DNA of 21,043 nucleotides from Methanomicrobiales archaeon (GCA_037137755.1 JBAXJR010000040.1:1-21043); one strand, 5' to 3'; shown: positions 3-21,043, counted from the stretch's first letter. The notes: generated from the sequence alone by a model not told the origin. Numbers and translations: made by a program.

Positions 3-554
3 GGAAGCATTGCCGCCTGGGGAAACAACCAGTACGGCCAGTGTAATGTCCCAACAGGAACCAGCTACGCGGCAATCAGCGCCGGGGGGTGGCACAGCCT
101 GGCGATCGCTACGAACGGCAGCATTGTTGCATGGGGTGAGTCCACGGGAGTGGCCCCGTCCGGGAATGACTTTTCGGCTATCGCCTCAGGGTGGTACCAC
201 AACCTGGCCCTCCGCCAGGATGGCACCATTGTGGCATGGGGGAATAACAAAGTCGGCCAGTGTAATGCCCCCTCCGGGAATGACTTTGTCGCCGTAAGCG
301 GCGGGGGATATCACAGCCTTGCTTTACGGCAGAACGGGAGCATCGTGGCCTGGGGGGACAATCAGTATGGACAATGCAATGCCCCGGCAGGGAACGACTT
401 TGTCGCCGTAAGCGCCGGGGGGTATTTCAGCCTGGCCTTACGCCAGGATGGGAAAATCGTGGCATGGGGGGCGAATGATTCCGGCCAGTGCGATGCCCCT
501 GCCGGGACCTTTTCCTCTATCTCCGGCGGCTATGAACACAGCCTGGCCATTGCA
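3..554 (+). repeat. Intragenic tandem RCC1-like repeats, 38 aa / 114 bp period
   Basis: gactttgtcgccgtaagcg recurs at 282 and 396 (114 bp apart); about five units visible, one with a shortened loop (WGESTGVAPSG). Confidence 0.85.
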
Positions 555-3161
555 CCGGCGACTGGATCTCCGGTAGCGGGATTTTCTGCCACGCCAAAAA
601 GTGGAAAATCCCCCTTACAGGTCCAGTTCAATGATACCTCTTCCGGTACACCTCCGCTGTCGTACCAATGGAACTTTGGTGATGGGAGCCCGAATGTTAC
701 CGTGCAAAACCCCCTGCATACCTATACGACAGGGTCCAATTTAACCTTCAATACGGTGCTGACCGTTGCAAATAGCGAAGGAACTGACAGTACCGCCTGT
801 AATATCCTGGTTAACATAACCGCCCCAGACCCCTCGGGTACCCAGATCACTGCCCCTGCGGTGATCAGCACTCCGGGGAACTACCGGCTTATGAACGATC
901 TCACCAATTCAACCGCAGAGACTGCAATCTGGATAAAATCCTCGGATGTATATCTCAACGGGAACGGCCATACGCTCAACGGGGCTTTAGCCCTGAACAC
1001 CACAGGGGTTCTGGCCGGAGACCCGTCACGGGACCTGAAGAATATCACGGTTGAAAACCTCACTATCACCGGATGGACCCCTGGCATTCAGATAACCAGG
1101 GTCACTGACAGCAGGCTTCAGAATATCCGTGTAACAGGTAACCAGGAAGGGATCCGCCTGAGTGGTTCCCCGGGGACCGCAGTCAGCCACTGCCTGGTAT
1201 TCGATAATATCCCGCTGAACGAGAAGGGGGTATTCGTAGGCGGAACGGGTATCAATGCATTGGATTCTCCATATTCCCGCATTCTTGATTCCAACATAAG
1301 TCACAACGGGTGGGGGGAGGAACTTCCCGGTGTCGGAGGCTATGGTATACTATCCCTTAATAACACCGGCATGCTTGTTTCCGGCTGTGTTGTCAATACC
1401 AATGTCAACACCGGGATTTGGAACCAGGACTCGGAGGATATGGTTGTCGTTGGGAATCTGTTCCATCACAACAGTGGTAACGGCGGGATATTTATGACAG
1501 CACGGTCTGAAGCCCCTGAGCTGAATTCCACCATCGCAGACAATACCGTATCAGAGAGTGGATGGGGAATATGGCTCATGATGAATAACAACACCATCAG
1601 GAATAACACGGTACGTGATTGCGGGTACGGAATATTGCTTGATACCAGCAGGAATGCGACGCTGACCGGGAACGTAATGTTCGATAATACAGTGAATTTC
1701 GCGGTGGATGGCCAGGAAACAGAAAATTACTTCCATAGAATCGATACCTCAAATACCGTTAACGGCCATCCGGTTTACTACCTTGTCAACCAGTCCGGTA
1801 CGGTTGTAGACAGGATCACCAGAGCCGGAACGGTCTACGGAATATCCTGCCAGGATCTTACGGTCCGGGACCTGGCCCTGGATGAGAACGAGTACGGGGT
1901 ATTCCTCCTCGGGTCCGATAGGGCCGTCATCCGTAATGTGACCGCATCCGAGAATACCAACGGGTTCAGCATTATAAATAGTGATAATCCCCGTATCGAA
2001 ACATGTACCGCTAGGGCGAATACCAACAACGGTTTCCTGGTACAGGATTCAGATGGGGTACAGATCAGGGACTCAGGCTCTTTCCAAAATACAGGGGGGA
2101 TGGAAAGCGGGACAGGAATTGCTATTACTAACTGCCAGGACGTTCTCCTTCAGCAGGTGAACGCCAGCAGGAATAACTTTGCGGGGATTGACGTGGAAGG
2201 CACCGGTCGGGTGGACCTGTCAAACGTAATAACCAATGCGAATGGGGCTGTCGGGATGATTCTGGGGGGAGAAACAATCCAGGTCACCGGATGTTATATC
2301 CTGGATAACGAGGGTCCCGGGATAGGTATGCTGGATTCCAGCAACGTCACAATCTGGAACAACTACTTCTCGAATGACGAAAATATCGATATTTCCAAGG
2401 GGGTTGTAACCGGGTCTTCCTGGAATATCCAGAAAACAGCCGGTAATAACATCGTCAACGGTCCGTTCTTTGGCGGGAATTACTGGGCAACACCAGACGG
2501 GACCGGTTGGTCACAGGTCACGCCTGACCGGGGCGATGGATTCTGCAATGCACCGTTTGTTATAGATGCGAACAATACGGATTACCTGCCGCTCCATTCC
2601 TATACTCCGAAACCAACATTCCAGGCGGATTTCGCTGTTTCACCCGTGAATGGGATGGCTCCCCTGACCGTGAAATGCACCGATAAGTCCATCGGCAGCC
2701 CGACACATTATTATTACAATTTTGGAGATGGCGTCAATGTTACCGGGCCAAATCCTGTCCACACCTACAAGTACCCCGGTACCTACAGCATCACCCTGAC
2801 GATCACGAAATATAACCCCGCAACAGGTTCCATAATGAGCAGTGTGGCCACAAAAACGAATGTTATAACGGTCAGCAAAGTTCCGGTCGTCATGCCTGTC
2901 GCGAAATTCACTGCATCACCGACCAGTGGAACCGTGCCTCTGACCGTAACATTTACGGACCAGTCCACTGGGAACCCGACATTTTATACCTATGATTTCG
3001 GAGATGGTGTCAATATGACCGGGGCAAACCCGGTTCATACCTACCTGTTCCCCGGGGTCTACAATGTCACCCTGACGGTCCTGAAAAATGATGTAAGCAA
3101 TGGTTCGGTTGTTAGTAATGCATCTGTTCAAAAAGGCCTGATTGTGTTGAACGGAAAATAA
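3..3161 (+). CDS. Large cell-surface/secreted protein, 5'-partial: RCC1/BLIP-II-like repeats + PKD + right-handed parallel beta-helix (NosD/CASH-like) + two C-terminal PKD domains
   Basis: The frame of ORF 150..3161 stays open back to base 3 (GSIAAWGNNQYGQCNVPTGTSYAAISAGGWHSLAI...), so the true start is upstream of the window. Repeats AGxxHSLALxxDGxIVAWGxNxxGQ; PKD motifs WNFGDG, YNFGDG, YDFGDG each followed by NPxHTY; many GI-x-L/N-rich beta-helix rungs; GGNYW motif; many N-x-S/T sequons. Confidence 0.88.
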   Translation, partial: GSIAAWGNNQYGQCNVPTGTSYAAISAGGWHSLAIATNGSIVAWGESTGVAPSGNDFSAIASGWYHNLALRQDGTIVAWGNNKVGQCNAPSGNDFVAVSGGGYHSLALRQNGSIVAWGDNQYGQCNAPAGNDFVAVSAGGYFSLALRQDGKIVAWGANDSGQCDAPAGTFSSISGGYEHSLAIAPATGSPVAGFSATPKSGKSPLQVQFNDTSSGTPPLSYQWNFGDGSPNVTVQNPLHTYTTGSNLTFNTVLTVANSEGTDSTACNILVNITAPDPSGTQITAPAVISTPGNYRLMNDLTNSTAETAIWIKSSDVYLNGNGHTLNGALALNTTGVLAGDPSRDLKNITVENLTITGWTPGIQITRVTDSRLQNIRVTGNQEGIRLSGSPGTAVSHCLVFDNIPLNEKGVFVGGTGINALDSPYSRILDSNISHNGWGEELPGVGGYGILSLNNTGMLVSGCVVNTNVNTGIWNQDSEDMVVVGNLFHHNSGNGGIFMTARSEAPELNSTIADNTVSESGWGIWLMMNNNTIRNNTVRDCGYGILLDTSRNATLTGNVMFDNTVNFAVDGQETENYFHRIDTSNTVNGHPVYYLVNQSGTVVDRITRAGTVYGISCQDLTVRDLALDENEYGVFLLGSDRAVIRNVTASENTNGFSIINSDNPRIETCTARANTNNGFLVQDSDGVQIRDSGSFQNTGGMESGTGIAITNCQDVLLQQVNASRNNFAGIDVEGTGRVDLSNVITNANGAVGMILGGETIQVTGCYILDNEGPGIGMLDSSNVTIWNNYFSNDENIDISKGVVTGSSWNIQKTAGNNIVNGPFFGGNYWATPDGTGWSQVTPDRGDGFCNAPFVIDANNTDYLPLHSYTPKPTFQADFAVSPVNGMAPLTVKCTDKSIGSPTHYYYNFGDGVNVTGPNPVHTYKYPGTYSITLTITKYNPATGSIMSSVATKTNVITVSKVPVVMPVAKFTASPTSGTVPLTVTFTDQSTGNPTFYTYDFGDGVNMTGANPVHTYLFPGVYNVTLTVLKNDVSNGSVVSNASVQKGLIVLNGK

Positions 3162-3492: not shown

Positions 3493-4494
3493 CTAAAACC
3501 ATTTATCCAGTGTCTTTTGTCCGGCTTTGCCTGCAATCCCTTCAAGTGATTTTCTCACCCGTTCCACCGAGAAATTGTAATCCCCGCAGAGCATCTCCTC
3601 GATCTTAATGGTGTCGGGCGGATGCCAGGCAAGGTTATACTCATTCGTGACAGGCGGGTGTAAGAAAAAGTCAATGACCTGTCCTGGATCGAAATCCGGT
3701 TCCTTTTTACCCATGGTATTTTCGAAGGAACCTTCTTTTACCAGTTTCAGTGCTGTCTTTGGGCCGATACCTTTCACACCGGGGTTAAAATCGTTCCCGA
3801 TAAGTACCGCGATCTGTACCAGCTGTTCGCGGGTGATACCCAGCCCTTTCAGCACCTCGGCGAGGATAACCTTTTCCGGGTTTAATACAAGGCTCCTCCC
3901 GTGGATTTTGCGTTTCCCGCTAATCGTGAGGTTCCGAACCAGCATGGGGACACCAAACAGCAGGGTATCGTAGTCCTGCGACACGACATAGGACGCATCG
4001 CCATGCATCACCATGTGTGTCGCCTGTGCTTCTCCTTCGCTTGGTGCATCGATGCAGGGTATACCCATCAGGGACAGGAGTTTTTTTGAGGTTTCTATTA
4101 TGTCCCGGTCGACCTTTGATGATGACCGCGCCTGTTTATACGCTTCTTCGGTGTCACCTCTTGCAAGGGCCTCCTCCCAGCGTTCACCTGCCTTTGCCCG
4201 TGCATTTCTTCGCTCTTCTATGGTCTTTTGTTTGAAATCCGGAGGTGGGCCGTCGAAAACATACACCGGCCGGATCCCTCTCTCGAGGAAATTTGCATTC
4301 CGAAAGAGAATACCGGAAAGATGGGATGTGATACGCCCCTTTGTGTCCATCAGGGGCGTACCGTCAGGCTGGCGAATAATTGAAAGGAACTGGTAGAGAG
4401 CGTTATGGGCGTCAACTGCCGCTATTCCGGGGAGTGCCTCCCATCCGAGGGGCACTTTATAGTCTGCAATGATATCTCGTAACGCGACTCCCAT
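3493..4494 (-). CDS. fen: Flap endonuclease 1
   Basis: N-terminal MGV, DAHNALYQFLSIIRQPDGTPL, VFDG, APSEGEAQA, SQDYD, GNDFNPGVKGIGPKTAL (H3TH), C-terminal PCNA-binding PIP box QKTLDKWF. Confidence 0.97.
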   Translation of the reverse strand: MGVALRDIIADYKVPLGWEALPGIAAVDAHNALYQFLSIIRQPDGTPLMDTKGRITSHLSGILFRNANFLERGIRPVYVFDGPPPDFKQKTIEERRNARAKAGERWEEALARGDTEEAYKQARSSSKVDRDIIETSKKLLSLMGIPCIDAPSEGEAQATHMVMHGDASYVVSQDYDTLLFGVPMLVRNLTISGKRKIHGRSLVLNPEKVILAEVLKGLGITREQLVQIAVLIGNDFNPGVKGIGPKTALKLVKEGSFENTMGKKEPDFDPGQVIDFFLHPPVTNEYNLAWHPPDTIKIEEMLCGDYNFSVERVRKSLEGIAGKAGQKTLDKWF

Positions 4495-8717: not shown

Positions 8718-9397
8718 GATGAATAGTTCTGTATCGCCTCAATAAAACCATCTCCATACCCTTTTTTTGCGATATATCCTGCAGCGGCCATTGCTGCCGG
8801 ATGTCCGTTTGCCACCGTAACCCCTATTCCCGCGGCTTTGAGCATCTCAACATCGTTGATTGCATCACCTATCGCGAGAAATTCCTCGGGTGGGATCCCG
8901 AGGTCATTTGCCAGGTCCATAAAAGCTGTTGCCTTGTTGACCCCTTTTGCCTGGAGGTGGATGGCAAACCCGGTATCGATAACCCGCACGTCGTAGTCAG
9001 CGAGTAGTTTTTCCACCTCTTCAGGAGGTACCGTCCGTGAGAAGGCGACATCCGCATACCGGTACTGGGGGCTCAGCAACTGGAGGGGAGTCCCTGCATT
9101 CCGGTAATGCGCCTGTATTACCTGGAATGCCTCGAGACAGACGGGCTGATCCCCGTGGATATGGAGTTCACCTGCGAATCCAACCCGGTAAACGCCCCCG
9201 TTTTCCCCTATAAAGGTCCCTGATGTGCCTATCATGCGGCACAGAGCGTCCATGAAACACGCTGTATTACCGCTGGCAAGCACGACCTCTACGCCACGTG
9301 AAACAAGCTCCCTGATCACCTCTATAGCCCCGGTGTGCAGGGAACGGCCTTGATCGGTTATGGTGCCGTCCACATCTGTCAGGATTGCTCTTAGCAC
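8699..9397 (-). CDS. HAD-superfamily phosphatase (phosphoglycolate phosphatase, TA0175/SPP-like)
   Basis: Motif I DVDGTIT, motif II ASGN, ENGG, motif III K (VNKA), motif IV GDAIND; GTG start overlaps the radA stop. Confidence 0.92.
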
Positions 9398-10368
9398 GGC
9401 TTGAGACCTGCCTCTTCAACCATGAATGGTGCTTCACCCTCGGGCAGGTTCGGGCTGTCCACGAGGCGGGCTATTCTTTTACCCCCCTTGCTCTTCCGGA
9501 GATATAACCTGAACGTGGCGGTATGGCCAACGATGTTGCCACCGATCGGCTTTGTCGGGTCGCCGAAGAATACGGCCGGGTTCGACATCACCTGGTTTGT
9601 CACAAGCGCCACGGCATTGTTCTCGTCCACGAGCTTGAACAGTTCATGCATGTGCCGGTTCAGTTTCTGCTGTCGTGTTGCGAGTGTCCCCCTGCCTGCG
9701 TATTCTGCACGGAAATGGGCGGTCAGGGAATCGATGATAAACAACCTGACCGGCATATCTGACTCCTTCATCTCGGCAGCACGTTCGCGTGCTGTATCAA
9801 TGAGAAGCATCTGGTGATCTGAGGTGTGGGCACGCGCGACATGGATATTTTTTAAGAACTCCTGCGGATCGGCACCATCAATTTCGAGACCGTTCACCAT
9901 CTGCTCGATACGTTCAGGCCTGAACGTGTTTTCGGTATCGATATAGATCGCGCTTCCGTTCAGCCCTCCTTCCGACTCGGGGAGCTGGACATTGACCGCG
10001 AGCTGGTGGACTATCTGGCTTTTACCTGACCCGAATTCACCATACAGTTCGGTGATCGCCTGTGTTTCGAGGCCCCCGCCGAGGAGGGTGTCGAAATCGG
10101 GGACGCGGGTCTGCAGTTTCCGAATCTCCTTCCTCTGTTCGAAAACATCTTTTCCTGTCTTGAAACCGCCAATATTGACCAGTTCGCGGGCGGCCTTGAT
10201 CATCTTCTTGGCAACAGCCTCTCCGATCTCAGCGGTCTCCGCGAGATCGAGCGGGGATGCTGTTGCAATGCTTTCAACGGTGACAAATCCGGCTTCCCGG
10301 AGTTTTTCGGCGGTGGTTGGACCAACGCCGGGTAAGTCATCAAGTTCCAGTGGACCTGTGGTGGTCAT
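9391..10368 (-). CDS. radA: DNA repair and recombination protein RadA
   Basis: N-terminal Hh[13 protein letters not shown], Walker [22 protein letters not shown], Walker [28 protein letters not shown]; 325 aa, no intein. Confidence 0.98.
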
Positions 10369-10517: not shown

Positions 10518-11849
10518 TCAGTGGGCGTTGCCGTGCTGCCCTTTCATTTCAGGCAGTCCCGTGCCAATCTGTTCTTTCAGGCGCCGGCACCGCACGAGTA
10601 CCTTTTCCGGGGATAGTTCAACCGCTTCAATGGTTTCCGGTGTAATCGTATGACCTGTAAGCGTACCCGTTACTCGGATTTCACGCCCGTGGGGGTGCTC
10701 TCCCTCAATGAGGTACGAGGCAGTCCCGTTTTCGATCATTGTACCTCTCCTGCCAGCCAGGATCGTTCCCTGGAACTCTATTGGCTGCTGAAATACCTGG
10801 GTTTCAACCAAGATGGAACTACCCCTGCCGACACTTAATTCGAGCTCACCGGTCCTTCCGGCCCGTGCCGTGGCATTGTAAATCGTGATAGCGTCCCCCT
10901 GGAAATAATGCTGCACTGCTGTATCCCCCCAGAACACTACCCTGATCTCACCAGTACCATCCCTGACTATGATATTCCTGACATGGGACCGGGAACCATC
11001 CCTCGCGATGAAAGACCTTGCAGGCAGGACCCGGGAAATCGTGCCCCTGACAGAATATACGCCCCCGTCTCCCACTTCCCCTATGGGGTTCATCAATACC
11101 TCAATTTCCAGTTCTATGGGCTCTATCGTGCTTTTTTCATCCACGCTGTACTCCCTTGCAGGAGGGCGTGAGCGATTTACAGCGCCGGTAATACGCAATG
11201 TTGTTCCCGGTACCAGTTCATCGAGGATTTCCGGCATCCAGCAGATGAGCCGCGCGGTCCCGCTCCCGTCTCCAATGACCGCTCCCCGCATCTCACCCCC
11301 TGTGCCGTCACGGCGGGTGAAAAGCCTGGGTTCCTCCAGTGAAAGCAACCGGGCCTCAAAAGTTACGCGTTCCGCCGGGGCCGTGTTGAGCGGTGATATG
11401 TTATTCCGGCATTCGATCTCGCAGGAGGCCTTCCTGATGGCGAGTGCCATGATGTCACCCGGTCGCTTTCCCGGTTTTCCGATGACCTCAAGCACGTCGC
11501 CTTTCTCGATCTCCTGTGCCGCCATGGCTTTCTCGTCCCAGAGGACCAGCCGGGTCTCGCCGGTCTCGTCCCCGACAAGGATCGAGGCAACGAGGCCTTT
11601 CTCCCCGTCGGTGCGGTCGAACTCCTTCGGTTCGCTCTTCTCGATTACTTTTGCGAAAAATGAAAAAAGACTTGATTTAGCCACCAGGCCATGTATCTTC
11701 ACGTGCTGCCGGCCAAGATCGGCAACGACAAGCATTGCACCGGTCAGCTCATCGACAAGGTCTCCGCAGTCCCGGATCTTCTCCTCTACCCGTCGCTCGA
11801 ACTCCTCCCTGCTGAGCAGGTCATCAACAAGCGCGTAGTGGAACTGCAC
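10518..11849 (-). CDS. rpa: Replication protein A / multi-OB-fold ssDNA-binding protein
   Basis: Three OB-fold repeats (F.R.DG..G.V....GDETG..RLVLWD; GDGSGTARLICW; RDGTGEIRVVFWGD); directly upstream of radA. Confidence 0.85.
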   Translation of the reverse strand: MQFHYALVDDLLSREEFERRVEEKIRDCGDLVDELTGAMLVVADLGRQHVKIHGLVAKSSLFSFFAKVIEKSEPKEFDRTDGEKGLVASILVGDETGETRLVLWDEKAMAAQEIEKGDVLEVIGKPGKRPGDIMALAIRKASCEIECRNNISPLNTAPAERVTFEARLLSLEEPRLFTRRDGTGGEMRGAVIGDGSGTARLICWMPEILDELVPGTTLRITGAVNRSRPPAREYSVDEKSTIEPIELEIEVLMNPIGEVGDGGVYSVRGTISRVLPARSFIARDGSRSHVRNIIVRDGTGEIRVVFWGDTAVQHYFQGDAITIYNATARAGRTGELELSVGRGSSILVETQVFQQPIEFQGTILAGRRGTMIENGTASYLIEGEHPHGREIRVTGTLTGHTITPETIEAVELSPEKVLVRCRRLKEQIGTGLPEMKGQHGNAH

Positions 11850-11865: not shown

Positions 11866-13158
11866 TTATTGCTGCCACGGCGGTGTGACCATCGTTGAGG
11901 TGACGTCCTCCGTGGTCTCCCTGTTTCGCATGAGCGCCTTTCTCTCTCCTTTTACGAGGACTTCGGCACATCTCGGCCTGCAGTTGTACTGGGATGCCAT
12001 TGCAAACCCGTAGGCCCCTGCATCAAGGACCGCGATGATGTCTCCCGCCTCTACGGTCGGGAGTAACCGGTCGGCAGCTAAAATATCCCCGGTCTCACAG
12101 ATCGGACCCGCTATCGAATAGGTCTCTTTTTCGGGTGCAGTCGCCTTGTTGGCGACGATGACCTCGTGGTAGGAGTTATACATGGTCGGCCTGATCAGGA
12201 GGTTGAACCCTGCGTCCACGTTAACAAAATTTTTATGGGCAAATTTGACTGAATTTACGCGGGTAAGAAGTACCGAAGAATCGGCAACGAGATATCTCCC
12301 GGGCTCCACCCAGAGTGCAGGGCTGATACCCGCAGCGTTAATCCCCTCGACAAAAACCGGCACAACTGCCCGGGCGTACTCCTCGGGGGTTGGTGCGGGA
12401 TCGGTATCGTGGTGGTAGGGAATACCGAGGCCACCGCCAAGGTCAATAAATTCAAGTGCGACCCCTATCGCGGTCAGGTCTTTTGCGACCTTTACCATCA
12501 CTTCGGTAGCTTTCACAAAAGGTTCGATTTCGAGGATCTGGGAACCTATGTGGCAGTGGACCCCGACCGGGACCACATTGCTGCACGTGAGTGCCTCCCT
12601 GTACGCGGACAGGATCTTGTCATGGGCAATACCGAACTTGCTTGATGCAACCCCGGTCGCGATTTTAGGGTGGGTTGGAATGCGGAGTGCAGGGTTGACA
12701 CGGAACGAGATCCGTGCTTTCTTCCCGCCTGCTTTGGCAGCAGCATCGAGCTGGTGAAGTTCGTCAAGCGAGTCGACAGAGACCGTGATACCATGAGCGA
12801 CCGCGAGGGCGAGGTCGCCAGGGCTTTTTGAACTCCCGTTAAAGAGGAGGTCTGCCGGTTTCATCCCTGCAGACAGCGCGAGCTCGAGTTCACCGGGTGA
12901 GAAGACATCAGCACCGGCACCGAGTCTCCCCAGTGCACGGAGAAGCGAGACGTTCCCGTTGGCCTTTGCGGCGTAGAGCACTTTAGAATTCGGGTACAGG
13001 GACGCCAGGGCTTTTTGGTACCGTGTATAATTGTCGCAGATCCGCTGTTCATCCGTGACATAAAGCGGGGTCCCGTGCTCCTGCGCAAGGGCCACCAGGT
13101 CATGCCGGCCGATAAACAGGTGCCCGCCCTGAACTGAGATGTGTGGGGGCAGTTTCAC
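11866..13158 (-). CDS. lysA: Diaminopimelate decarboxylase
   Basis: YAAKAN (PLP lysine), SKFG, HCHIGSQ, DLGGG, EPGR, GPICETGD, GAYG; GTG start overlaps the dapL stop by 4 nt. Confidence 0.96.
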   Translation of the reverse strand: MKLPPHISVQGGHLFIGRHDLVALAQEHGTPLYVTDEQRICDNYTRYQKALASLYPNSKVLYAAKANGNVSLLRALGRLGAGADVFSPGELELALSAGMKPADLLFNGSSKSPGDLALAVAHGITVSVDSLDELHQLDAAAKAGGKKARISFRVNPALRIPTHPKIATGVASSKFGIAHDKILSAYREALTCSNVVPVGVHCHIGSQILEIEPFVKATEVMVKVAKDLTAIGVALEFIDLGGGLGIPYHHDTDPAPTPEEYARAVVPVFVEGINAAGISPALWVEPGRYLVADSSVLLTRVNSVKFAHKNFVNVDAGFNLLIRPTMYNSYHEVIVANKATAPEKETYSIAGPICETGDILAADRLLPTVEAGDIIAVLDAGAYGFAMASQYNCRPRCAEVLVKGERKALMRNRETTEDVTSTMVTPPWQQ

Positions 13159-14303
13159 GCCGATAGCCCCCTCATCCTTCCCAGTGCTTCGATGATGCGT
13201 TCTTTTGGCCGGGTGAGTGCAAACCTTACATACCCCTCACCCCAGCGTCCGAAGCCGAGACCGGGTGTGACGACAATACCTGCCTTATCCAGCATCATCG
13301 CGGAGAATTTCATGCAGTCTTCGACCTGCATCCATACGTAGAAGGTCGCTTTTGGGGCGGGGACGTTGTAGCCCAGTTCGTTAAGTCCTTTTACAAGGAT
13401 GTCACGCCGCTCCTGGTAGATCGCACAGGCCTCCCTGACACAGTCCTGCGGGCCGGAAAGGGCCGTGATTGCAGCATGCTGTACGGCGTTGAACACACCG
13501 GAATCCACGTTGGTCTTGACACGGCCAAGGCCTGACAGGATATCAGGGTTGCCTACGGCCATCCCGATCCGCCAGCCGGTCATATTGTAGGTCTTCGAGA
13601 GGGAGTGCATCTCGACACCGACCTCCATCGCTCCCTTCACTTCGAGGAAGGATGGTGCACGGTACCCGTCGTAGGCGATTTCCGAATAGGGGTTATCAGA
13701 AACAACAATGATATTGTTCTCGCTGGCAAAATCCACCACTTCGCGATAGAAGTCCGTTGAAGCTACCGCCGCGGTCGGGTTGTTCGGGTAGTTGATGAAC
13801 ATGAGTTTTGCCGCTTTGATGACATCCTTTGGAATGTCTGAAAGGACGGGAATGAATTTATTCTCCCTTTTAAGCGGCATTTCATGGACCCTACCCTCTG
13901 AGAACAGCGTTCCCGTGTAGTATCCAGGGTAACCGGGACTCGGGGCGAGCACGTAATCGCCGGGATCAACAAAGGCCTCTCCGATATGCGTGATTCCGTC
14001 TTTCGATCCCATCAGGGCAAGGACTTCTTTGCCCGGGTCAAGGGATACCCCGAACCGTGTTTTATACCAGTCTGCAACGGCACTCCGGTATTGCGGCATT
14101 CCCGCGTAACTCGGGTAATGGTGGTTTTCTACATGGTGTGCCGCCTCGCAGAGCGATTCCACGATATGGCGGGGTGTTGGAAGATCAGGGTCACCTACCC
14201 CGAGGTCGATGACATCAACGCCGCTCCTTATTTTCTCGGCCTTCATCTCATCGATCCGGGCAAAAAGGTAAGGGGGAAGCTGGCCCATACGTTTTGCGTA
14301 CAT
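13155..14303 (-). CDS. dapL: LL-diaminopimelate aminotransferase (class I/II PLP aminotransferase)
   Basis: LPPYLFA, DLGVGDPDLPTP, GSKDG, NYPNNPT, SLSKTYNMTGWRIG; coupled to lysA. Start set at ATG 14303 (MYAKRMGQLPPYLF); the extra 14 codons in the ORF track come from the repeat. Confidence 0.9.
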   Translation of the reverse strand: MYAKRMGQLPPYLFARIDEMKAEKIRSGVDVIDLGVGDPDLPTPRHIVESLCEAAHHVENHHYPSYAGMPQYRSAVADWYKTRFGVSLDPGKEVLALMGSKDGITHIGEAFVDPGDYVLAPSPGYPGYYTGTLFSEGRVHEMPLKRENKFIPVLSDIPKDVIKAAKLMFINYPNNPTAAVASTDFYREVVDFASENNIIVVSDNPYSEIAYDGYRAPSFLEVKGAMEVGVEMHSLSKTYNMTGWRIGMAVGNPDILSGLGRVKTNVDSGVFNAVQHAAITALSGPQDCVREACAIYQERRDILVKGLNELGYNVPAPKATFYVWMQVEDCMKFSAMMLDKAGIVVTPGLGFGRWGEGYVRFALTRPKERIIEALGRMRGLSA

Positions 14304-14370
14304 TTGCACATATTTTGATTTAATGCGATACATCCCTTTCGGCACGGTGATCTCGGAACGGGTAACTTTG
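14290..14370 (-). repeat. Direct repeat copy 1 (overlaps first 14 nt of dapL; lacks the inverted-repeat arm)
   Basis: Ungapped hand alignment to 16238-16318 gives 69/81 identities; 37 nt (14308-14344) are identical to 20447-20483. Confidence 0.95.
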
Positions 14371-14527
14371 CGGTGTATGAAGTGCCCGTCTTTTGGTAGA
14401 CCTCTTATCTGAACCTCGCTAGTCGACCTTTCGCTTCCCTATTCCCTTAAAGAGAGTTACCATCCTTAACGATCCATCAATTCCGCAAATAAATGAGATT
14501 AAACGATGTAAAAACAGTTTCATGAAC

Positions 14528-15361
14528 TTATTCATTCCCGATCGGAATGGCATTTTCCCATAATTTTTGAAAAACACCTCTTAGCTGGGAATTCAGAACC
14601 GCATCACGAATCCTGATCATTGCATAAGGCCGGGCGAGATCTCTTTGATCCTCAGGTTCAAATATGCATGTTGTTTTGTCCACGAGGATGAAGTTATGTT
14701 CCGTGTTGCAAACCCGGATTTCAACCAGATCATGATAGAGTTGCCGGGTATCATCATCCTGGATGCAGGAGGCGATTTTGGAAAAGAAATTTAAATAAGG
14801 GGAATCCGGGTAAATTATTTTTACAGAAATTCCCCTTTTCAACAGACTGACCAGGTTATTCATTAATGAATATAATGTTCTTTCATCAGGTTCTGAATTA
14901 AAAGAACCATAGCGAATCTGAGTAACATATATCACTTCTTTTTTCGCTTCATTGTGTATCCGTATGAAATAATTCAGGATATCTTCATTGCTGTACATAA
15001 TTTGTAAATCCTGAAGATTGGGTGATGATTGATTTTTTCTCTCTAAACCCTGTTCGAGTTGAGTTATGGTATTTTTTAAATCCTCCCGCTTTTTTTCATG
15101 TTCGATAAAATATTTCATATAGGTTCGTTGAAGTGCAATTTCCGGAATGATGGCTTCGTATTTTTTTGGCCTTCCGGAATGCTCGATAATTATTTCATTT
15201 ATGAGAAGCTGGGAGAGCGTTTCATAGATTTTTCCCATAGGAACATGAGATTCTCCTGACAGAATTCTCGCGTCAAGTGGGCCTTTTCGAAGCAGGCAGG
15301 CGTAAATTAATGCCTGGTATTTAGAAAGACCAATCTTCTGGAGCAAATCGATGTCAGACAT
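14528..15361 (-). CDS. TrmB-family transcriptional regulator
   Basis: LQKIGLSKYQALIYACLL...SHVPMGKIYETLSQL...GRPKKYEAI wHTH, coiled coil, C-terminal PLD-like effector domain (RGISVKII, HNFILVD, FQKLWENA). Confidence 0.9.
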   Translation of the reverse strand: MSDIDLLQKIGLSKYQALIYACLLRKGPLDARILSGESHVPMGKIYETLSQLLINEIIIEHSGRPKKYEAIIPEIALQRTYMKYFIEHEKKREDLKNTITQLEQGLERKNQSSPNLQDLQIMYSNEDILNYFIRIHNEAKKEVIYVTQIRYGSFNSEPDERTLYSLMNNLVSLLKRGISVKIIYPDSPYLNFFSKIASCIQDDDTRQLYHDLVEIRVCNTEHNFILVDKTTCIFEPEDQRDLARPYAMIRIRDAVLNSQLRGVFQKLWENAIPIGNE

Positions 15362-15424
15362 TAAACTTCACTGAGTTTATTTGGTGTGAATTGTTTAAAT
15401 CACTATACCAGGAGAATACTGATT
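15362..15424. promoter_or_regulatory. Divergent promoter region with candidate operator, TATA-like box and SD
   Basis: TTCAC(15367-15371)-N14-GTGAA(15386-15390) inverted repeat; TTTAAA at 15394-15399; AGGAG at 15410-15414. Confidence 0.45.
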
Positions 15425-15829
15425 ATGACAACCATGACTAAGGAACCCCAGTCTCCCCTTGAAGTCGTCAAGGCATTCTTTGCTGCAATGGCAAAGCTCG
15501 ACTACGACACGGCACTTTCGTATGTTTCCGATAATTGTGAGTACGATAACCTGCCCATGCCTGATGCCAAGGTATATGGGCCGGCAGGTATTCGTGCCGT
15601 GCTGGAACCATTCTTCGCGCCAACCATCAAAAACGAGTTTGTCGTGCTGCGCGAAGCGGCACAAGGCCCTGTTGTATTTATGGAGCGACTCGATCGGCAC
15701 CGCCTGCCAAATGGCTGGTTTGAGTTGCCCGTCATGGGTGTGATGGAGGTGCACAATGGTCGCATCACGCTCTGGCATGAGTACTTCAACCTGCCCACGA
15801 TCGCACCCATGTTTACTCCGCAATCCTGA
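15425..15829 (+). CDS. Limonene-1,2-epoxide hydrolase-like protein (NTF2/SnoaL fold)
   Basis: YDNLP (Tyr/Asn water-binding pair), MERLD (Arg/Asp), LPVMGVMEVHNGRITLWHEYF; start ATG 15425 (or 15434) after AGGAG. Confidence 0.85.
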   Translation: MTTMTKEPQSPLEVVKAFFAAMAKLDYDTALSYVSDNCEYDNLPMPDAKVYGPAGIRAVLEPFFAPTIKNEFVVLREAAQGPVVFMERLDRHRLPNGWFELPVMGVMEVHNGRITLWHEYFNLPTIAPMFTPQS

Positions 15830-16217
15830 CAAAATCAGCGTTTAACGGCCTGTAAGGGCGTCGTTGTAGCGGTGGGATCAGAGCTAAAGGAATCGAGCAC
15901 CGCAGTAACAGAAAGCGGTTACACACGATATGTACATGTCCGCAATCTAGTGCTGGCTAATGGAAATATACCCAAAATCATATCCCTTTCATCGACATCG
16001 GGCAGCAGAATTTTCTTTGTGATGTTTGAAATTTGCAGAGCCGGGGAATTTCTGTAAGGCTTTCCCGGTGTTGCCCAACTGACTTACCGGGAATTATCCA
16101 GAGCTTATAAAGCCACAGATTTGAATTATAACCCATTTTATCGCAGTCAACTGAATAATATTTAAAATTTTAAAAGCTCGAAGAAGATATCAGGAAACCT
16201 GGATGGGAAAATCCTAT

Positions 16218-16318
16218 AAAAAGCGAACACCTACGTTCGTTTTTCGTACATTTGGACATATTATTATTTGATGCGATACATCCCTTTCGGCACCGTGATC
16301 TCAAACCGGACACCTTTG
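16218..16318 (-). repeat. Direct repeat copy 2 (contains last 17 codons and stop of the histidine kinase, plus 11-6-11 inverted repeat)
   Basis: Shares atgcgatacatccctttcggca (16271-16292) with copies 1 and 3; aaaaagcgaac-acctac-gttcgtttttc at 16218-16245. Confidence 0.95.
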
Positions 16319-19300
16319 CCAGGTTCGCCGTTCTCCTTAATAGTGATGCCTGTAAGGGAGAGAATCTCCCGTACCAGGAACATTCCAAGACCGGTGTTCT
16401 TTCCGAATCCCCGTTCAAAGATCTTCTCCTTCTCCTCTACCGGGATTCCTACACCGTTGTCTTCCCAGATAATAGTTAACGTATTATTGGACTTTTCGAT
16501 AGACACTCTGATGTTAGTCACATGCTCACCGTGCCGCACAGAGTTATCAAGAAGGTTAAAAAAGACCCGTTCAAGCATCGGATCAGCGTATATTTCTGTG
16601 CCTTTCACATTGGAATTCAACTTTAACGTTGGCGGGAGATGTGGACTAAGTGCAATGATTATATTCAAATCCTGCCATAGTGGTTCATGCGTACCAAGAT
16701 TTTCGTAGACCTTCGTAAACTCGATCTGGGAGCGAATTGCCCTCGTGGCCAATTCGATTTTGCTTAAATACTCTGCAATCAGCGGATTTTTTAGTTCCAT
16801 TTCTGCCAGGGAGATATATCTAAGGATAGTTGTGATCTTATTCAGGATATCATGGCGTGTGATTCCGGTGAGAAGCTTTAACTGCCGGTTTGACTGAAGG
16901 ATTGCTTGTTCCGCCTTTTTCCGGTCTGTAATGTCCCGGCCATTAGAGATAATAGCAGGTTTTCCGTTATACGTGATTACGCGACTGCTCACTTCCGCCG
17001 GGATACGGGTTCCATCCTTTGCGTGGTGAGCCGTTTCAAAAACAACATGGCCGGTTTGCTGCAGTTCCTGGACACGAGCCTGGACCATATTGCCATATTC
17101 GGGTTCGTCTATGTCGCTGGGACTCATTTTAAGCAGTTCTTCACGTGAATAGCCAAGTCTCCTGCAAATTTCATCGTTAACCTCCAGGAAATGGCCCTGC
17201 ATATCATGGATCACGATTGCGTCGCCGGCGTTGTTGAAGAAGTCCCGGAATTTCGCCTCACTCTCCCGCGATGCTTCCTCAACCTGTTTTCGTTCGGTGA
17301 TATTTTGTCCTAAAATGGCAAGCCGCCTGATCTTTCCATCCGGATCTATCACCGGATTAAGTATATTATTAAACACTGTACCTGACCCGACGTTTTCATA
17401 CTGCACCATCTGTCCGGACCGTAGAACTTCCTGGACCTTGCTTTTACGTTCCTCGCACAATTCGGGGGGGAGGACCGAGTAACTATTCAGTCCAACAATA
17501 TCCTCACCCCTCGCAAATCCAAGGCGTTTGGCCGCTGTTTCATTGGCTGCGAGAATAGTTCCATCTAAAAGCATCAGGAAGGCCGATTCGGTGATCCCGT
17601 TCAGCATAGCAGAAAGCGTTTCCTCGCTTGACTGTAGATCTGCTTCTGCCCGTTTGAGATCAGTAATGTCAGTGCAGGAACCCAGGTAGCCTCCTTGTGG
17701 CAACGCGCTAGCGTTCATCATTACGTTCAAATAATCGCCGTTCTTTTTCCGAAGTTGAATCTCTCTCGATAGTGAACCCTTCACCTGTAACGTAGAAAAA
17801 TTATTGCTACGGCCCGGCTGGTCAGGATTTATGTCATACACCGAAAGGGAAAGAAGTTCTTCACGGGAATAACCGAGCATTGAACACGCATAGGGATTTA
17901 CATCCCGGTACTTACCTAGTGAATCCACAATAAAAATTCCAACAGGGGAATTGTCAATATATGTACGGTATCGTGACTCGTTTTCTTTAAGTGCTTCCGC
18001 CACTTTTTTGCGTTCCGTGATGTCATGAATAACTCCAATAACAGCATTCTCTTGTGGATTGTATTCTGCAACAGAATGAATATCAAGTACTGCTCCGTCA
18101 GATTGCCTCTGGATTTTAAATTCAACATTATAAGGAGATTTTCCCGCAATAAGGTCTTTCAGAGCCGTATTGAGGAGAGGGCGATAACCGGCGATGGGGA
18201 TTTTCTGGATAGCTTCAAGGGTAAATTGCGCTCCTTCGAGACCATAAAGGATCTTTGCACCTTCCGAGGCGGTGACACTATGATCATTTAATCGGATCTC
18301 CCAGCTTCCCGACCTGCCGATCTCTTCCGCCCGTTTTAAATGCATCTCGCTAATGCGGAGTATATCCTCTTCCTTTCTCCGTTCTGTGATGTCCTGAACC
18401 AGACCAAGCATACGGTTCTGCTCGCCGATGGGACTGAATTCGATTTTGCCTCTTGCCCAAATCCAACGGATTTCACCATCAGTTCGCCGTATACGGCACT
18501 CAAATTCCCAGTCGTGCTTACATGACTGGGCCTCATTGAACGCATGATCCACCAAATCCCGATCTTCCGGCAGGACATGTTCCAAAAACATCTCGTATGT
18601 CCATTCCGGTAAAAGGGAATCATATCCAAAAATCTGGTCGTGCCGGAGTGATCGCCACGCTGTATGACGTTTCAGGTCAAGGTCCCAGGTCCCCATTTGA
18701 GCTACGCTAAGAGCGAGTTCAAGTCGCTCCTCGCTCTTTCGCAGTGCTTCCTCTGCCCGCTTCCGTTCGGTAATGTCCTCGATTGTCCCTTCATAGGCGA
18801 TGATCTTTCCATTGGTATTACGTATAACTCTTGCATTTGTGGTAATCCAGATAGAATGTCCATCCCTGTGCCAGTTTTGCATCTCGAAATTCCGAACCTC
18901 CCCTGCCTCTGAAAGTGATCGATTAAAGATCTGCCGAACTTCCGGGTTGACATATAACTGCTTCTGGATATCGTGGATTGCAGACATCATCTCTTCGGGA
19001 GAGTCGTACCCGTATATTTGTGCAAATGCCAGGTTCATAGTCAGATATCTTCCCTCCGGAGTCGTCTGGAAGATCCCAAGGATTGAATTATCAAACAGTA
19101 AGTGGAATTTACTTTCGCTTTTAAGACGTTCTTCTTCGGCCTCTTTTATTTCCGTTACATCCCGGCCAACTGATTGGTACTCGATTATCGTACCTGAAGC
19201 ATCGAATATCGCCCGGTCGCTCCAACGCTGCCACCGGATGGTGCCGTCCGGCATTACGATCCGGTGCTCAATGGTATCTACCTGATTATCCTGTGCCAAC

Positions 19301-20268
19301 GACCTGAAAAATTTGTTTATTCGTTCCTGGTCCTCCGATGGGATCTTTGGTCTGAAACGGTGACCTAGGATATCATGTCGAGCGAAGCCGAAGTATCTGC
19401 AATACGCTTCGTTTACAAAAATATGTGTGCCGTCAGGCAGAAACCGGGAAATTAATTCTGTCTGGTCCTCGACAACATTCCTATACCGCCTCTCGCTTTC
19501 CCGGAATGCTTCTTCTGTCCGCGTCTGTTCTGTTATATCAAAGGCCAGTCCGGTAACACCTGTGATTGTCCCCTGTGCATCGTAAAGAGGAGAGAGATAT
19601 GTCCGAAATGTTATACCCTCATACGTATAGTCATACACGGTCGACTCTCCGGTGAGCGCACGCAGATGGTGGCTTATTTCCGGATGATCCGGGTCACTCG
19701 TATTAAAGAATTCATAGAGGGTCTTTCCAACTGCCTTATCAGGTTTAAGGCCAATTTCTGCAAGTCCTGCGCCCTGCGACAAAGTAAACCGAAGGTTGCT
19801 GTCAACTGCCCACACGGTTCCAGGCAGTTGGTTCATAACAGATCGGAACCTTTCTTCACTTTGATTTAATGCCCTCTCTGCCCACTTCCGATAAATCGCC
19901 ATCTTGATCTTGTGGGTCAGCTCAACAAACTGTGCCTGCGGATCTCCACCCTTTTGGAGGTAAAAATCTGCCCCTTCGTTCAGAGCCTGGATGACAACAT
20001 CTTCACGCCCTTTACCAGTGAAGAGAATAAACGGTATATTATTGCCGGAATTTCTTACCGTCTTCAAAAGTTGAATGCCGTCCATATCGGGCATCTGGTA
20101 ATCGGATATAATGGCATCGAATTGTTCGGTTTTAAGAAGTGACAAGGCAGAAATGGCCGAATCAATTGTTTTTACTGAAATATCTCCGGTGTGTTCCAGG
20201 AACATCTTACCGATTTCGAGAAGGCCATGTTCATCATCAACATAGAGTACCCGAAGTACACCAGTCAT
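16264..20268 (-). CDS. Hybrid sensor histidine kinase: N-terminal receiver + 8 PAS/PAC domains + HisKA-like + HATPase_c
   Basis: REC (LYVDDE, ISDYQMPDMDG, FTG, YLQKG); eight PAS blocks closed by DITE-like motifs; H box RHDILN, N box NLLDNSVRHG, G1 EDNGVG, F box IFERGF, G2 TGLG. Confidence 0.95.
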   Translation of the reverse strand: MTGVLRVLYVDDEHGLLEIGKMFLEHTGDISVKTIDSAISALSLLKTEQFDAIISDYQMPDMDGIQLLKTVRNSGNNIPFILFTGKGREDVVIQALNEGADFYLQKGGDPQAQFVELTHKIKMAIYRKWAERALNQSEERFRSVMNQLPGTVWAVDSNLRFTLSQGAGLAEIGLKPDKAVGKTLYEFFNTSDPDHPEISHHLRALTGESTVYDYTYEGITFRTYLSPLYDAQGTITGVTGLAFDITEQTRTEEAFRESERRYRNVVEDQTELISRFLPDGTHIFVNEAYCRYFGFARHDILGHRFRPKIPSEDQERINKFFRSLAQDNQVDTIEHRIVMPDGTIRWQRWSDRAIFDASGTIIEYQSVGRDVTEIKEAEEERLKSESKFHLLFDNSILGIFQTTPEGRYLTMNLAFAQIYGYDSPEEMMSAIHDIQKQLYVNPEVRQIFNRSLSEAGEVRNFEMQNWHRDGHSIWITTNARVIRNTNGKIIAYEGTIEDITERKRAEEALRKSEERLELALSVAQMGTWDLDLKRHTAWRSLRHDQIFGYDSLLPEWTYEMFLEHVLPEDRDLVDHAFNEAQSCKHDWEFECRIRRTDGEIRWIWARGKIEFSPIGEQNRMLGLVQDITERRKEEDILRISEMHLKRAEEIGRSGSWEIRLNDHSVTASEGAKILYGLEGAQFTLEAIQKIPIAGYRPLLNTALKDLIAGKSPYNVEFKIQRQSDGAVLDIHSVAEYNPQENAVIGVIHDITERKKVAEALKENESRYRTYIDNSPVGIFIVDSLGKYRDVNPYACSMLGYSREELLSLSVYDINPDQPGRSNNFSTLQVKGSLSREIQLRKKNGDYLNVMMNASALPQGGYLGSCTDITDLKRAEADLQSSEETLSAMLNGITESAFLMLLDGTILAANETAAKRLGFARGEDIVGLNSYSVLPPELCEERKSKVQEVLRSGQMVQYENVGSGTVFNNILNPVIDPDGKIRRLAILGQNITERKQVEEASRESEAKFRDFFNNAGDAIVIHDMQGHFLEVNDEICRRLGYSREELLKMSPSDIDEPEYGNMVQARVQELQQTGHVVFETAHHAKDGTRIPAEVSSRVITYNGKPAIISNGRDITDRKKAEQAILQSNRQLKLLTGITRHDILNKITTILRYISLAEMELKNPLIAEYLSKIELATRAIRSQIEFTKVYENLGTHEPLWQDLNIIIALSPHLPPTLKLNSNVKGTEIYADPMLERVFFNLLDNSVRHGEHVTNIRVSIEKSNNTLTIIWEDNGVGIPVEEKEKIFERGFGKNTGLGMFLVREILSLTGITIKENGEPGKGVRFEITVPKGMYRIK

Positions 20269-20408
20269 TACTCTTCATTGCATGCCCATCAGATATTAGT
20301 TTGTCATTCAGATACCCTGCGCCAGCGGTCCTGTTTCGGTGAGGACTCTTATTTTTTCTAAAAAAATTTCAAAAATATGGCCTGGAAATTGGTAGAGAAA
20401 AGGTATGC

Positions 20409-20508
20409 AGAAAGCGAACACGTACGTTCGGTTTGCGCACATTAGGACATATTTTGATTTAATGCGATACATCCCTTTCGGCAGCGTAATCTCGAACAGG
20501 CACCTTTG
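20409..20508 (-). repeat. Direct repeat copy 3 (intergenic; kinase-tail-like stub with 1-nt deletion plus inverted repeat)
   Basis: Core 20462-20483 identical to the other copies; agaaagcgaac-acgtac-gttcggtttgc at 20409-20436; ends at the same ctttg as the others. Confidence 0.95.
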
Positions 20509-20645
20509 TGGGGATTATTTAAAAAAAAATTTACATTATCCAGGGCCGTTGGTATACGGATCCGCCTCGTCAGACTGTGCATTCATGATAGGGAAAAAGG
20601 CCCGGATGTGGAGGACAAATGGGGTCCCCTTGAAAAATAAAGATT

Positions 20646-21041
20646 TCAGGTCCCCAGCGGGGACTCATTCATGCCGAGGAAATCGAGTGCGTTCTCCCCG
20701 TATTGGACGGGTGCATACTTGGACCCGAAATGCGGGAGTCCCTTGAACCGCACGAGCCACGATCCGTTGATCTGACTGGCAATCTGGACCGTAACATTCT
20801 GTGGCGTCAGTACGTCCGCGGTGCCCACGACGAGCATGACCGTCTTATTGATCCCTGAAAGGTGGTCCCATGACCCGCTCCAGTTCAGGTTTGCCTGGGA
20901 CTCCTGGTGAACGCCCTGGGTCTGGTTAGGATTGTTACCTTCCACGACAATGAGAGCGTACAGCAGTTTGGTCTCCGGTATCCGGATATCGTAGGTCACA
21001 GAATCCAGTACCAGTTTTCGTACGCGTTCAGGGTGATCGAT
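20646..21041 (-). CDS. Alpha/beta hydrolase, 5'-partial
   Basis: Frame is open to the window edge (IDHPERVRKLVLDSVTYD...); catalytic Asp region VGTADVLTP and His region GLPHFG. Confidence 0.88.
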   Translation of the reverse strand: MDHPERVRKLVLDSVTYDIRIPETKLLYALIVVEGNNPNQTQGVHQESQANLNWSGSWDHLSGINKTVMLVVGTADVLTPQNVTVQIASQINGSWLVRFKGLPHFGSKYAPVQYGENALDFLGMNESPLGT

Positions 21042-21043
21042 AA

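Follow-up and report, generated by a model that had tools for sequence, protein, structure and literature searches.

The 21,043-nucleotide window analysed here is an entire contig (JBAXJR010000040.1, called C40 below) of the Methanomicrobiales archaeon assembly GCA_037137755.1, which is 2.64 Mb long and 90.6% complete. Upstream of dapL, the gene for LL-diaminopimelate aminotransferase, the window holds a series of gene cassettes set apart by direct copies of a junction sequence, and it is very probable that the locus is a cassette array organised by these junctions. In one subclade of an uncultured Methanomicrobiales genus, the array occupies the whole space from cutA to the dapL start codon. 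At population level the locus has the marks of a cassette platform, in that its junctions are fixed, its cargo varies, it appears to grow at one end and one of its cassettes occurs in several positions. The array is not an integron. Below, the own genome is the assembly that contains the window, and G- and L-numbers denote relatives' genomes and locus or metagenome contigs.

An earlier note on this DNA had described three same-orientation copies of a repeat of about 80-100 bp, with a 22-nt core common to all, 69/81 identity between copies 1 and 2, and periods of 1948 and 4191. Apart from the repeat length, recomputation gave exactly these figures, and over the segments that had been compared all three copies do end at the same ctttg. 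The actual unit is longer: a junction profile constructed from internal copies matches about 270 nt at both 20295-20565 and 16115-16381. A repeat search returned one three-copy direct family (14272-14361, 16220-16309 and 20411-20500; spacings 1948 and 4191). When the 2.64-Mb assembly was searched by BLAST with a 131-nt query (window 16200-16330), the other two copies were recovered at E = 2e-27 and 8e-21, and the repeat is therefore far beyond chance. The array also runs on past position 21043, with fourth and fifth copies on contig C39. The 3' end of C40 and the start of C39 overlap by 55 identical nt, and the joint is bridged by an independent metagenome contig that is 99.99% identical over 7869 nt. 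Since the array-relevant genes all lie on the minus strand, the limonene-epoxide-hydrolase/SnoaL-like gene (LEH) excepted, the repeat is read in the dapL sense. Read in this way, a complete junction consists of a left arm (P), a core (O) and a right arm (H). The features are, in window coordinates unless C39 is named:

11866-13158, minus: lysA, diaminopimelate decarboxylase (TIGR01048, 488.5 bits, plus Pfam), directly downstream of dapL.
13155-14303, minus: dapL (TIGR03540, 613.6 bits, cut-off 593.25; Pfam Aminotran_1_2).
14289-14378, minus: junction 1, a P-O-dapL hybrid (nhmmer, profile positions 57-150 only; O at 14290-14303).
14379-16114, mixed strands: cassette LT, a TrmB-family regulator gene plus the LEH gene.
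14528-15361, minus: TrmB-family regulator gene of cassette LT (Pfam PF01978).
15386-15829, plus: LEH gene of cassette LT (Pfam PF07858).
16115-16381, minus: junction 2, complete P-O-H (nhmmer positions 4-270, score 199.6; O at 16238-16251, palindrome at 16220-16243).
16264-20268, minus: cassette PK, a response-regulator multi-PAS histidine kinase of 1334 aa (Pfam Response_reg, PAS families, HATPase_c).
20295-20565, minus: junction 3, complete P-O-H not preceded by a kinase (nhmmer positions 1-275, score 227.2).
20429-20442, 20411-20434 and 20509-20540, minus: O, palindrome and AT-rich stretch of junction 3, in that order (fuzzy scan).
20646-21043, minus: cassette HY, 3' part of an alpha/beta hydrolase gene that runs on into C39 to about C39:587; the G010 ortholog carries Pfam Abhydrolase_1.
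C39:580-813: fourth full repeat copy, forming the 3' end of a second, membrane-bound kinase.
C39:2581-2625: fifth, decayed repeat copy (profile/BLAST match).

Alignment of the relatives' copies gave a junction unit of about 225-270 nt. The P arm is made up of an AT-rich stretch, a kinase-tail relic (the last ~15 codons plus 3' flank) that begins near caaagg, and about 25 nt more. Core O is 14 nt long, is identical to the first 14 nt of dapL (ATGTACGCAAAACG) and encodes MYAKR. The H arm, of about 115 nt, opens with the palindrome CGAAC-N6-GTTCG, flanked by A and T runs, and is T-rich thereafter. In complete junctions this palindrome is imperfect, its arms of ~9-11 nt being built from 5 perfect base pairs plus A/T pairs with a one-base bulge; the spacer is 6 nt, and the left arm overlaps O. 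Copies fall into three classes: complete internal P-O-H, P-O-dapL at dapL itself, and decayed distal copies that have O-H but other upstream sequence. The alignment thus upholds the proposal that internal junctions are complete and the one at dapL is a hybrid. Every internal copy bears the first 14 nt of dapL, and in 12/12 proximal copies with downstream bases read the similarity of P-O-dapL to the internal copies ends after ..AAAACG. The dapL start is the ATG at 14303, residue 2 aligning to TIGR03540 position 2 and the relatives aligning from residue 1; same-genus relatives lacking the array retain the N-terminus YAKRMG, the codons differing by synonymous changes. Junction orientation is constant and the cargo genes face both ways, with the LEH, H248, MIP and TerC genes pointing away from dapL. 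The consensus fold of 15 complete junctions came to -9.3 kcal/mol, with 0/22 pairs compensatory, the sequence being too invariant for a structure to be testable. The H arm resembles a hairpin plus T-run terminator, and, to judge from sequence, P may act as promoter or 5' control region of dapL and H as a terminator.

Relatives' genomes were used to ask whether the repeats delimit modules, as the earlier note had held, and they do. We searched 41 relatives for dapL, found it in 38, and compared up to 18 kb upstream in ten. Both the content and the order of genes upstream of dapL differ: at least 16 cargo modules occur in about ten arrangements, bounded by junctions, and the breakpoints between close relatives fall at junctions. 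The flank on the other side, lysA, is conserved and was kept in every relative compared. The arrangements, written left cassette before right cassette, towards dapL, are:

Own genome: MT / KB / HY / PK / LT / dapL
G003: AKR / M221 / HY / PK / dapL
G004: MT / MIP / HY / H248+LT / dapL
G012: MT / .. / M221 / HY / H248+LT / dapL
G010: HY / dapL
G006: H248 / dapL
G007: TerC / H248 / S131 / dapL
L085: MT / X175 / dapL
L087: M221 / dapL
L082: LT / M221
L086: ? / K3 / HY
Merged contig set: HY / H248 plus five other genes / dapL

Cassette LT is present in G004, G012 and L082 and was not seen at the locus in G003, G010 or G007; the PK cassette was not seen at the locus in G004, G010, G012 or G007. In G003 a PK-related kinase cassette adjoins dapL, with identities of ~75% over the last ~1.1 kb and 88-90% over ~2.3 kb. 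That multi-PAS kinase cassette (contig L065) is in three frames of 710, 402 and 335 aa, the break being either a pseudogene or an assembly error. M221, an HXXEE membrane protein, is found in three positions: distal to HY (G003, G012), after LT (L082) and beside dapL (L087). The L082 contig is only 2.1 kb long and possibly a chimera across the repeat. The array contigs of G004 and G007 are long (301 kb and 234 kb), and because both are, the difference between these two genomes is not an assembly effect. An assembly artefact was judged unlikely in general, since the own-genome junction copies differ from one another by 13-24%, an independent contig repeats the window's arrangement and two long-contig assemblies differ. 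Empty sites were also seen among the relatives: the cutA-dapL interval, ~12.7 kb in the own genome, is a gap of 106 nt in G008 (same genus), and cutA and dapL are adjacent in G017 (other genus).

Three further sequence features were noted. The H248 module ends in a perfect palindrome (AGAGGATA AT TATCCTCT), seen at ~14700 of L064 (G004) and also in L063 (G007) and L036 (G006). G004/G012, G007 and G006 diverge just past it, no P-O-H junction being present there, and contig L084 diverges ~20 nt before the position of this palindrome and is without it. In L087, about 300 nt downstream of the HXXEE gene (2737-3034) are inverted relative to G003, with AT-rich runs on both sides. Three of the relatives that have no array carry an 8-nt palindrome ~15 nt before the dapL start, GTTCGAAC in G008 (L067) and G001 (L068) and GGTCGACC in G009 (L066). 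Because the two differences between these forms are symmetrical and leave it palindromic, it may be a regulator binding site.

Given the kinase-tail relic in P, the repeats might be static, that is, kinase 3'-end relics, or promoter or terminator copies, left by old segmental duplications with ordinary indels nearby. The left part of the repeat does share homology with the tails in 35 further kinase-paralog matches, and 2/5 own-genome array copies are true kinase 3' ends. One is junction 2, whose P arm is the genuine 3' end of the PK kinase gene: the reading frame ends ..FEITVPKGMYRIK, followed by the stop codon (16264-16266) and then 44 nt that hold the palindrome and T-run. The terminator-like H arm fits such an origin too, and the cutA-dapL interval also varies where there is no repeat at all (1.8-2.6 kb in G001 and G009). 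Nevertheless, we regard static relics as highly improbable. Breakpoints between genomes repeatedly coincide with junctions, and one cassette, M221, occupies three positions. In 3/5 own-genome copies no kinase stands in front, and in the non-kinase cassettes the similarity begins at nearly the same point. The start of dapL recurs in every internal copy, and conservation of the non-coding core equals or exceeds that of the dapL coding sequence. Similarity is not confined to coding sequence, array copies running 45 to ~160 nt past the kinase stop codon; 35/40 own-genome BLAST matches cover the kinase coding-tail part alone, and the non-coding remainder is confined to the five array copies. As for the kinases themselves, sequences with 75-100% identity to the final ~55 nt of the kinase gene recur at least 35 times, spread over many contigs (for example C34:22284-22338, C50:3542-3598 and C11:6276-6331). 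This points to a large histidine-kinase paralog family with a conserved ..PKGMYR tail in the own genome; similar tails are also present in other genera of the family.

The cargo is of cellular type. Its regulators comprise two TrmB, an HxlR and an ArsR-like protein. There are three kinases, redox enzymes (an aldo-keto reductase with Fe-S, a GGR-like flavoprotein and a PNPOx-like protein), membrane proteins (HXXEE, TerC/DUF475, MIP and ArsP), hydrolases, a radical-SAM gene and unknowns. Cassettes measure 0.7-6 kb, and some hold 2-6 genes. Among ~25 annotated cargo proteins there was no replication, capsid, recombinase or other mobile-element hallmark. This bears on the possibility that the junctions are left-over att sites of small plasmids or viruses, which integrated in tandem at dapL by means of their own integrases and later lost them. 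The identity segments of archaeal att sites measure between 8 and 243 bp, and tandem integration, integrase loss and integrase-less integrated elements are documented in archaea (sections of PMC8371274). A complete internal site with a hybrid at the target gene fits such a history, and 11 PF00589 matches elsewhere in the own genome indicate that mobile-element integrases circulate. The cassettes are only 0.7-6 kb long, however, their annotated proteins lack the hallmarks just named, integrase included, and no intact parent carrying the site turned up in 2.9 million viral contigs, the genome collection or the metagenome scan. We consider decayed elements a very unlikely source of the array.

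In the collections searched, the junction was found only at this locus. Profile search over 13 non-redundant genomes or contigs counted 30 junction copies, all of them at dapL. An exact 21-mer from P was found at 8 loci in 6 species of metagenome-assembled genomes (Methanomicrobiales, all at the dapL locus) and on 11 metagenome contigs, with 0 matches among the 2.9 million viral contigs. An O-H 18-mer gave, besides array loci, only chance bacterial matches and 0 viral contigs; it added the second contig of one metagenome-assembled genome, which is the distal half of that genome's array. Neither scan returned an integrase-bearing relative that uses the site. In a family survey of 121 genomes from 19 genera, some match was found in 16 genomes, and a match that extends beyond the kinase tail in only 7, all of this genus. 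Within the own 90.6%-complete assembly, neither O nor the palindrome (allowing up to 3 mismatches for the latter) occurs outside the array.

The array is polar. Profile scores drop away from dapL in 3/3 genomes with at least 4 copies, the scores outward from dapL being:

Own genome: 199.6, 227.2, 170.6, 25.9
G003: 239.2, 205.7, 119.2, 16.7
G004: 271.0, 211.6, 44.3

A still more decayed copy adjoins cutA. Junctions far from dapL are thus decayed and, by that sign, old, and the pattern fits an array that grows at the dapL end. The arms also differ in their linkage to cargo. For cassettes with at least 2 representatives, the nearest H arm shared the right-hand cassette in 10/12 junctions, the exceptions being the two HY/PK junctions, suggesting that H moves together with the cassette on its downstream side; by eye, the far-left portion of P is cassette-specific. 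Conservation is uneven across the junction: blocks that hardly vary lie in P, O and the palindrome. The 57-nt P-O core has a mean identity of 0.91 among 10 dapL-proximal copies, versus 0.87 for the first 900 nt of dapL, and in the divergent L080 lineage the core stands at 0.84-0.95 versus 0.78-0.80 for dapL.

How might such an array be built? We lean, tentatively and with somewhat less than even confidence, towards a site-specific recombinase that acts in trans and carries out a conservative exchange in or next to O. A circular cassette with one P-O-H site would recombine conservatively, in or beside O, with the resident P-O-dapL. Integration would put the cassette beside dapL and give dapL a fresh copy of its 5' region, and successive insertions would extend the array at the dapL end. 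Recombination between junctions would remove or move cassettes, and old junctions far from dapL would decay. The enzyme would act in trans, an XerA-like tyrosine recombinase being a candidate, and homologous recombination and gene conversion between junctions would act as well. We lean this way because of the three-class, att-like pattern of copies, the 14-nt identity with the target, the uneven conservation across lineages and the polarity, and because the upstream arm was changed with only O as shared sequence. A more specific form of the proposal is an independently evolved archaeal gene-capture platform, in which 0.7-6-kb circles carrying a ~250-nt P-O-H site would be inserted at the first 14 nt of dapL by a chromosomal trans-acting recombinase, possibly XerA; that form, taken as a whole, we think rather unlikely.

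The same array might instead result from homologous recombination alone, an account that we find doubtful yet take seriously. The first junction would have arisen by a tandem duplication ending 14 nt inside dapL. Later steps would be RadA-dependent unequal crossing-over, loop-out and Campbell-type re-integration across 130-170 conserved nt; P-O would be kept because it controls the essential dapL-lysA pair from its 5' side, and gene conversion would spread it. Losses, duplications, re-insertions and gene conversion are all accounted for in this way, radA is encoded in the genome (window 9391-10368), and an unequal crossover can yield the LT/M221 order of L082. What homologous recombination leaves unexplained is how P and H arms came to enclose 16 or more cargo modules that are unrelated to one another. 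In the switch from the older upstream sequence to kinase-type P, moreover, the 14-nt O was the sole homology available. Gene conversion should homogenise copies within genomes only, whereas conservation is uneven across lineages, and distal copies decay instead of staying uniform.

A number of results weigh against a trans-acting recombinase, and several of them favour homologous recombination. In the conserved part of P, only 5/16 junctions group by their left-hand cassette, as homologous recombination would allow. Private variants are common to two G007 copies, and likewise to the G003 and L082 copies; such lineage-private variants mean that gene conversion, hence homologous recombination, acts on the junctions. 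Cassette divergence follows host divergence: identities of HY and of the flank are 92.0% and 91.1% for G010, 91.5% and 90.3% for G004, and 89.5% and 85.9% for G003. Turnover is therefore slow, and most of the content differences may be old losses. The sequence before the distal copy, after the methyltransferase gene, is repeated beside cutA, so that sequence upstream of an old distal junction flanks the methyltransferase module at either end, the outcome expected of Campbell integration. For the same reason the reading of this distal partial copy as a clean attL was withdrawn; it may be an older decayed junction. No junction is present where one would be expected at H248+LT (G004, G012) and at the radical-SAM gene of G010. 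The palindrome spacer differs between the junctions and dapL, and similarity at dapL breaks off three bases short of it, which rules the spacer out as the point of exchange there. Mapping of exchange points by shared variants was compatible with O, at few informative sites, and homologous recombination fits equally.

The search for an enzyme and for products of its action was negative at the locus and also counts against a trans-acting recombinase. A tyrosine recombinase near the copies, which the earlier note had thought worth looking for, was not found: the 11 PF00589 matches of the own genome all lie off C40 and C39, and no such match is present on the array contigs of the own genome, G003, G004 (301 kb), G007 (234 kb), G010 or G012, the lack of a linked or shared dedicated recombinase favouring homologous recombination. 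An XerA-like tyrosine recombinase, mostly in frames of ~320-327 aa, is encoded in 13/13 genomes of the genus and is the only recombinase common to all array genomes; at E <= 1e-8, G007 (83% complete) has the XerA-like gene only and G004 three. A serine recombinase (resolvase) was dropped as a shared candidate, being in only 1/5 array genomes, as was a Y1 (IS200-type) transposase, in 0/5. Nor did an autonomous element carrying the site appear in the collections scanned for an intact parent. Evidence of excision was sought in assembled Logan contigs of four public runs, in which rare events are invisible. The PK/LT junction was crossed in 4/4 runs, in the window's arrangement. These contigs gave no circle, deletion or repeat-to-repeat joint, and they break inside junctions 1 and 3. 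The sole joint that starts in the repeat (14355 to 17175) is given by one contig with a side of 20, too short to trust, and the remaining joints fall inside the kinase PAS repeats. A casposon-like 14-nt target duplication was also rejected: the cassettes do not end in inverted repeats, and inspection showed no gene of the casposase type in them, no Cas1 family search having been made. The earlier note had counted against its own proposal an invariant gene content upstream of dapL, copies that are tails of kinase paralogs, and a lack of linked recombinase and excision junctions. The main one of these points fails because the upstream content is not invariant; as to the rest, kinase-paralog tail sequence does make up the left part of the repeat, and neither a linked recombinase nor an excision junction was found.

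In the open-access literature, supplements apart, no description of the dapL cassette locus was found, and the archaeal cassette arrays reported in the open-access literature searched were only canonical attC/IntI integrons. Gene-cassette arrays are known mainly as integrons, in which IntI acts on attC. The attC sites are imperfect hairpins with R''/L''...L'/R' boxes and a GTTRRRY core, and integron cassettes are mostly single promoterless open reading frames in one orientation. That the present site is unlike attC and has no linked integrase had been proposed earlier, and both points stand, the former from comparison by eye only: the palindrome 7-mers AACGAAC and GTTCGCT match neither RYYYAAC nor GTTRRRY, and the consensus fold of the junctions is weak. 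The array does resemble an integron or a cluster of attC sites lacking integron integrases (CALIN), as these are treated, archaeal ones included, in Ghaly et al. 2022 (PMC9668308), in being a one-way array of short accessory cassettes with a recurring site, variable content and growth apparently at one end, CALINs being arrays with no nearby integrase. It differs in having no IntI-type gene beside it, which a CALIN does not require, and in a site of ~250 nt, composed of a kinase relic and the start of the target gene, versus an attC hairpin of 57-141 nt. Insertion is at the start codon of an essential gene rather than at an attI beside intI, and the cargo faces both ways, with 2-6 genes in some cassettes.

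Other systems share other features. The pdif sites of Acinetobacter plasmids are 28 bp long and alternate in orientation, whereas the sites here are direct, ~250 nt long and at dapL. The pdif modules (PMC6449649 and PMC7399989), like elements that integrate at dif by means of host Xer, lack a recombinase of their own, are bounded by a short palindromic site and are moved by the host's housekeeping tyrosine recombinase. The dapL cassettes, too, carry no recombinase gene, and an XerA-like gene is the only recombinase found in all 13 genomes of the genus. The geometry of the H palindrome is loosely like that of archaeal dif, which has two 11-nt arms, a 6-nt spacer and cleavage at the spacer ends (passages of PMC2958812 and PMC8371274). 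The H arms are imperfect, however, the exchange point at dapL is outside the spacer, and the palindrome has no twin elsewhere in the assembly; the idea of a dif mimic was set aside, since neither palindrome nor O recurs in the 90.6%-complete assembly and no chromosomal dif-like twin was found. Comparable accretion is known for SXT/R391 at prfC and for the integrase-less cis-mobilisable elements of Streptococcus, and integrase-less members can be mobilised in trans. Tandem islands in the 5' end of dusA (PMC4482086, in part) likewise integrate inside the 5' end of a gene, restore that end and have direct repeats at either end as well as between units. As in tandem integrative elements, there is an identity segment (O, the dapL start), a hybrid at the target and complete sites between units, over the 30 copies. 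Those elements differ in being 10-100 kb long with at least one partner that has an integrase, versus dapL cassettes of 0.7-6 kb with cellular-type cargo.

Several neighbouring genes deserve mention. Beyond the fifth copy, C39 carries in order a methyltransferase gene, a split ArsP permease gene, a DGC-domain gene, ArsR, cutA, DUF1890 and a 560-aa gene. The distal modules are arsenic-flavoured, with ArsP, ArsR, the DGC-domain gene and a SAM methyltransferase, plus the MIP channel in G004. The ArsP-type permease (L111, that is C39, 4017-4978, minus) is split into frames of 213 and 96 aa, versus a single 338-aa frame in G010, and is likely a frameshift or pseudogene. In cassette LT the divergent TrmB and LEH starts, as called, are only 24 nt apart (15361-15386), and one of them is probably too early. 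Less than 10 kb downstream of dapL lie radA (Rad51/RadA), a FEN1-type flap endonuclease gene (3493-4494) and an OB-fold RPA-like gene (10518-11849), a grouping that is probably coincidence. At the start of the contig an open frame of more than 1000 aa (window 3-3161), with RCC1 repeats, NosD/beta-helix and PKD domains, probably encodes a surface protein.

If a host recombinase such as XerA does build the array, it would be a second, independent route of cassette capture, and the first in methanogens. The more specific platform proposed above, if true, would be functionally analogous to the integron but distinct from it in its site, its enzyme and the logic of its anchoring, and each insertion would replace the 5' region of dapL. 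If homologous recombination alone is at work, a repeat that carries the 5' region of an essential gene would make the locus a self-perpetuating accretion site. Either way, the locus is an entry and exit point for kinases, regulators, arsenic-related genes and redox genes in these freshwater methanogen genomes.

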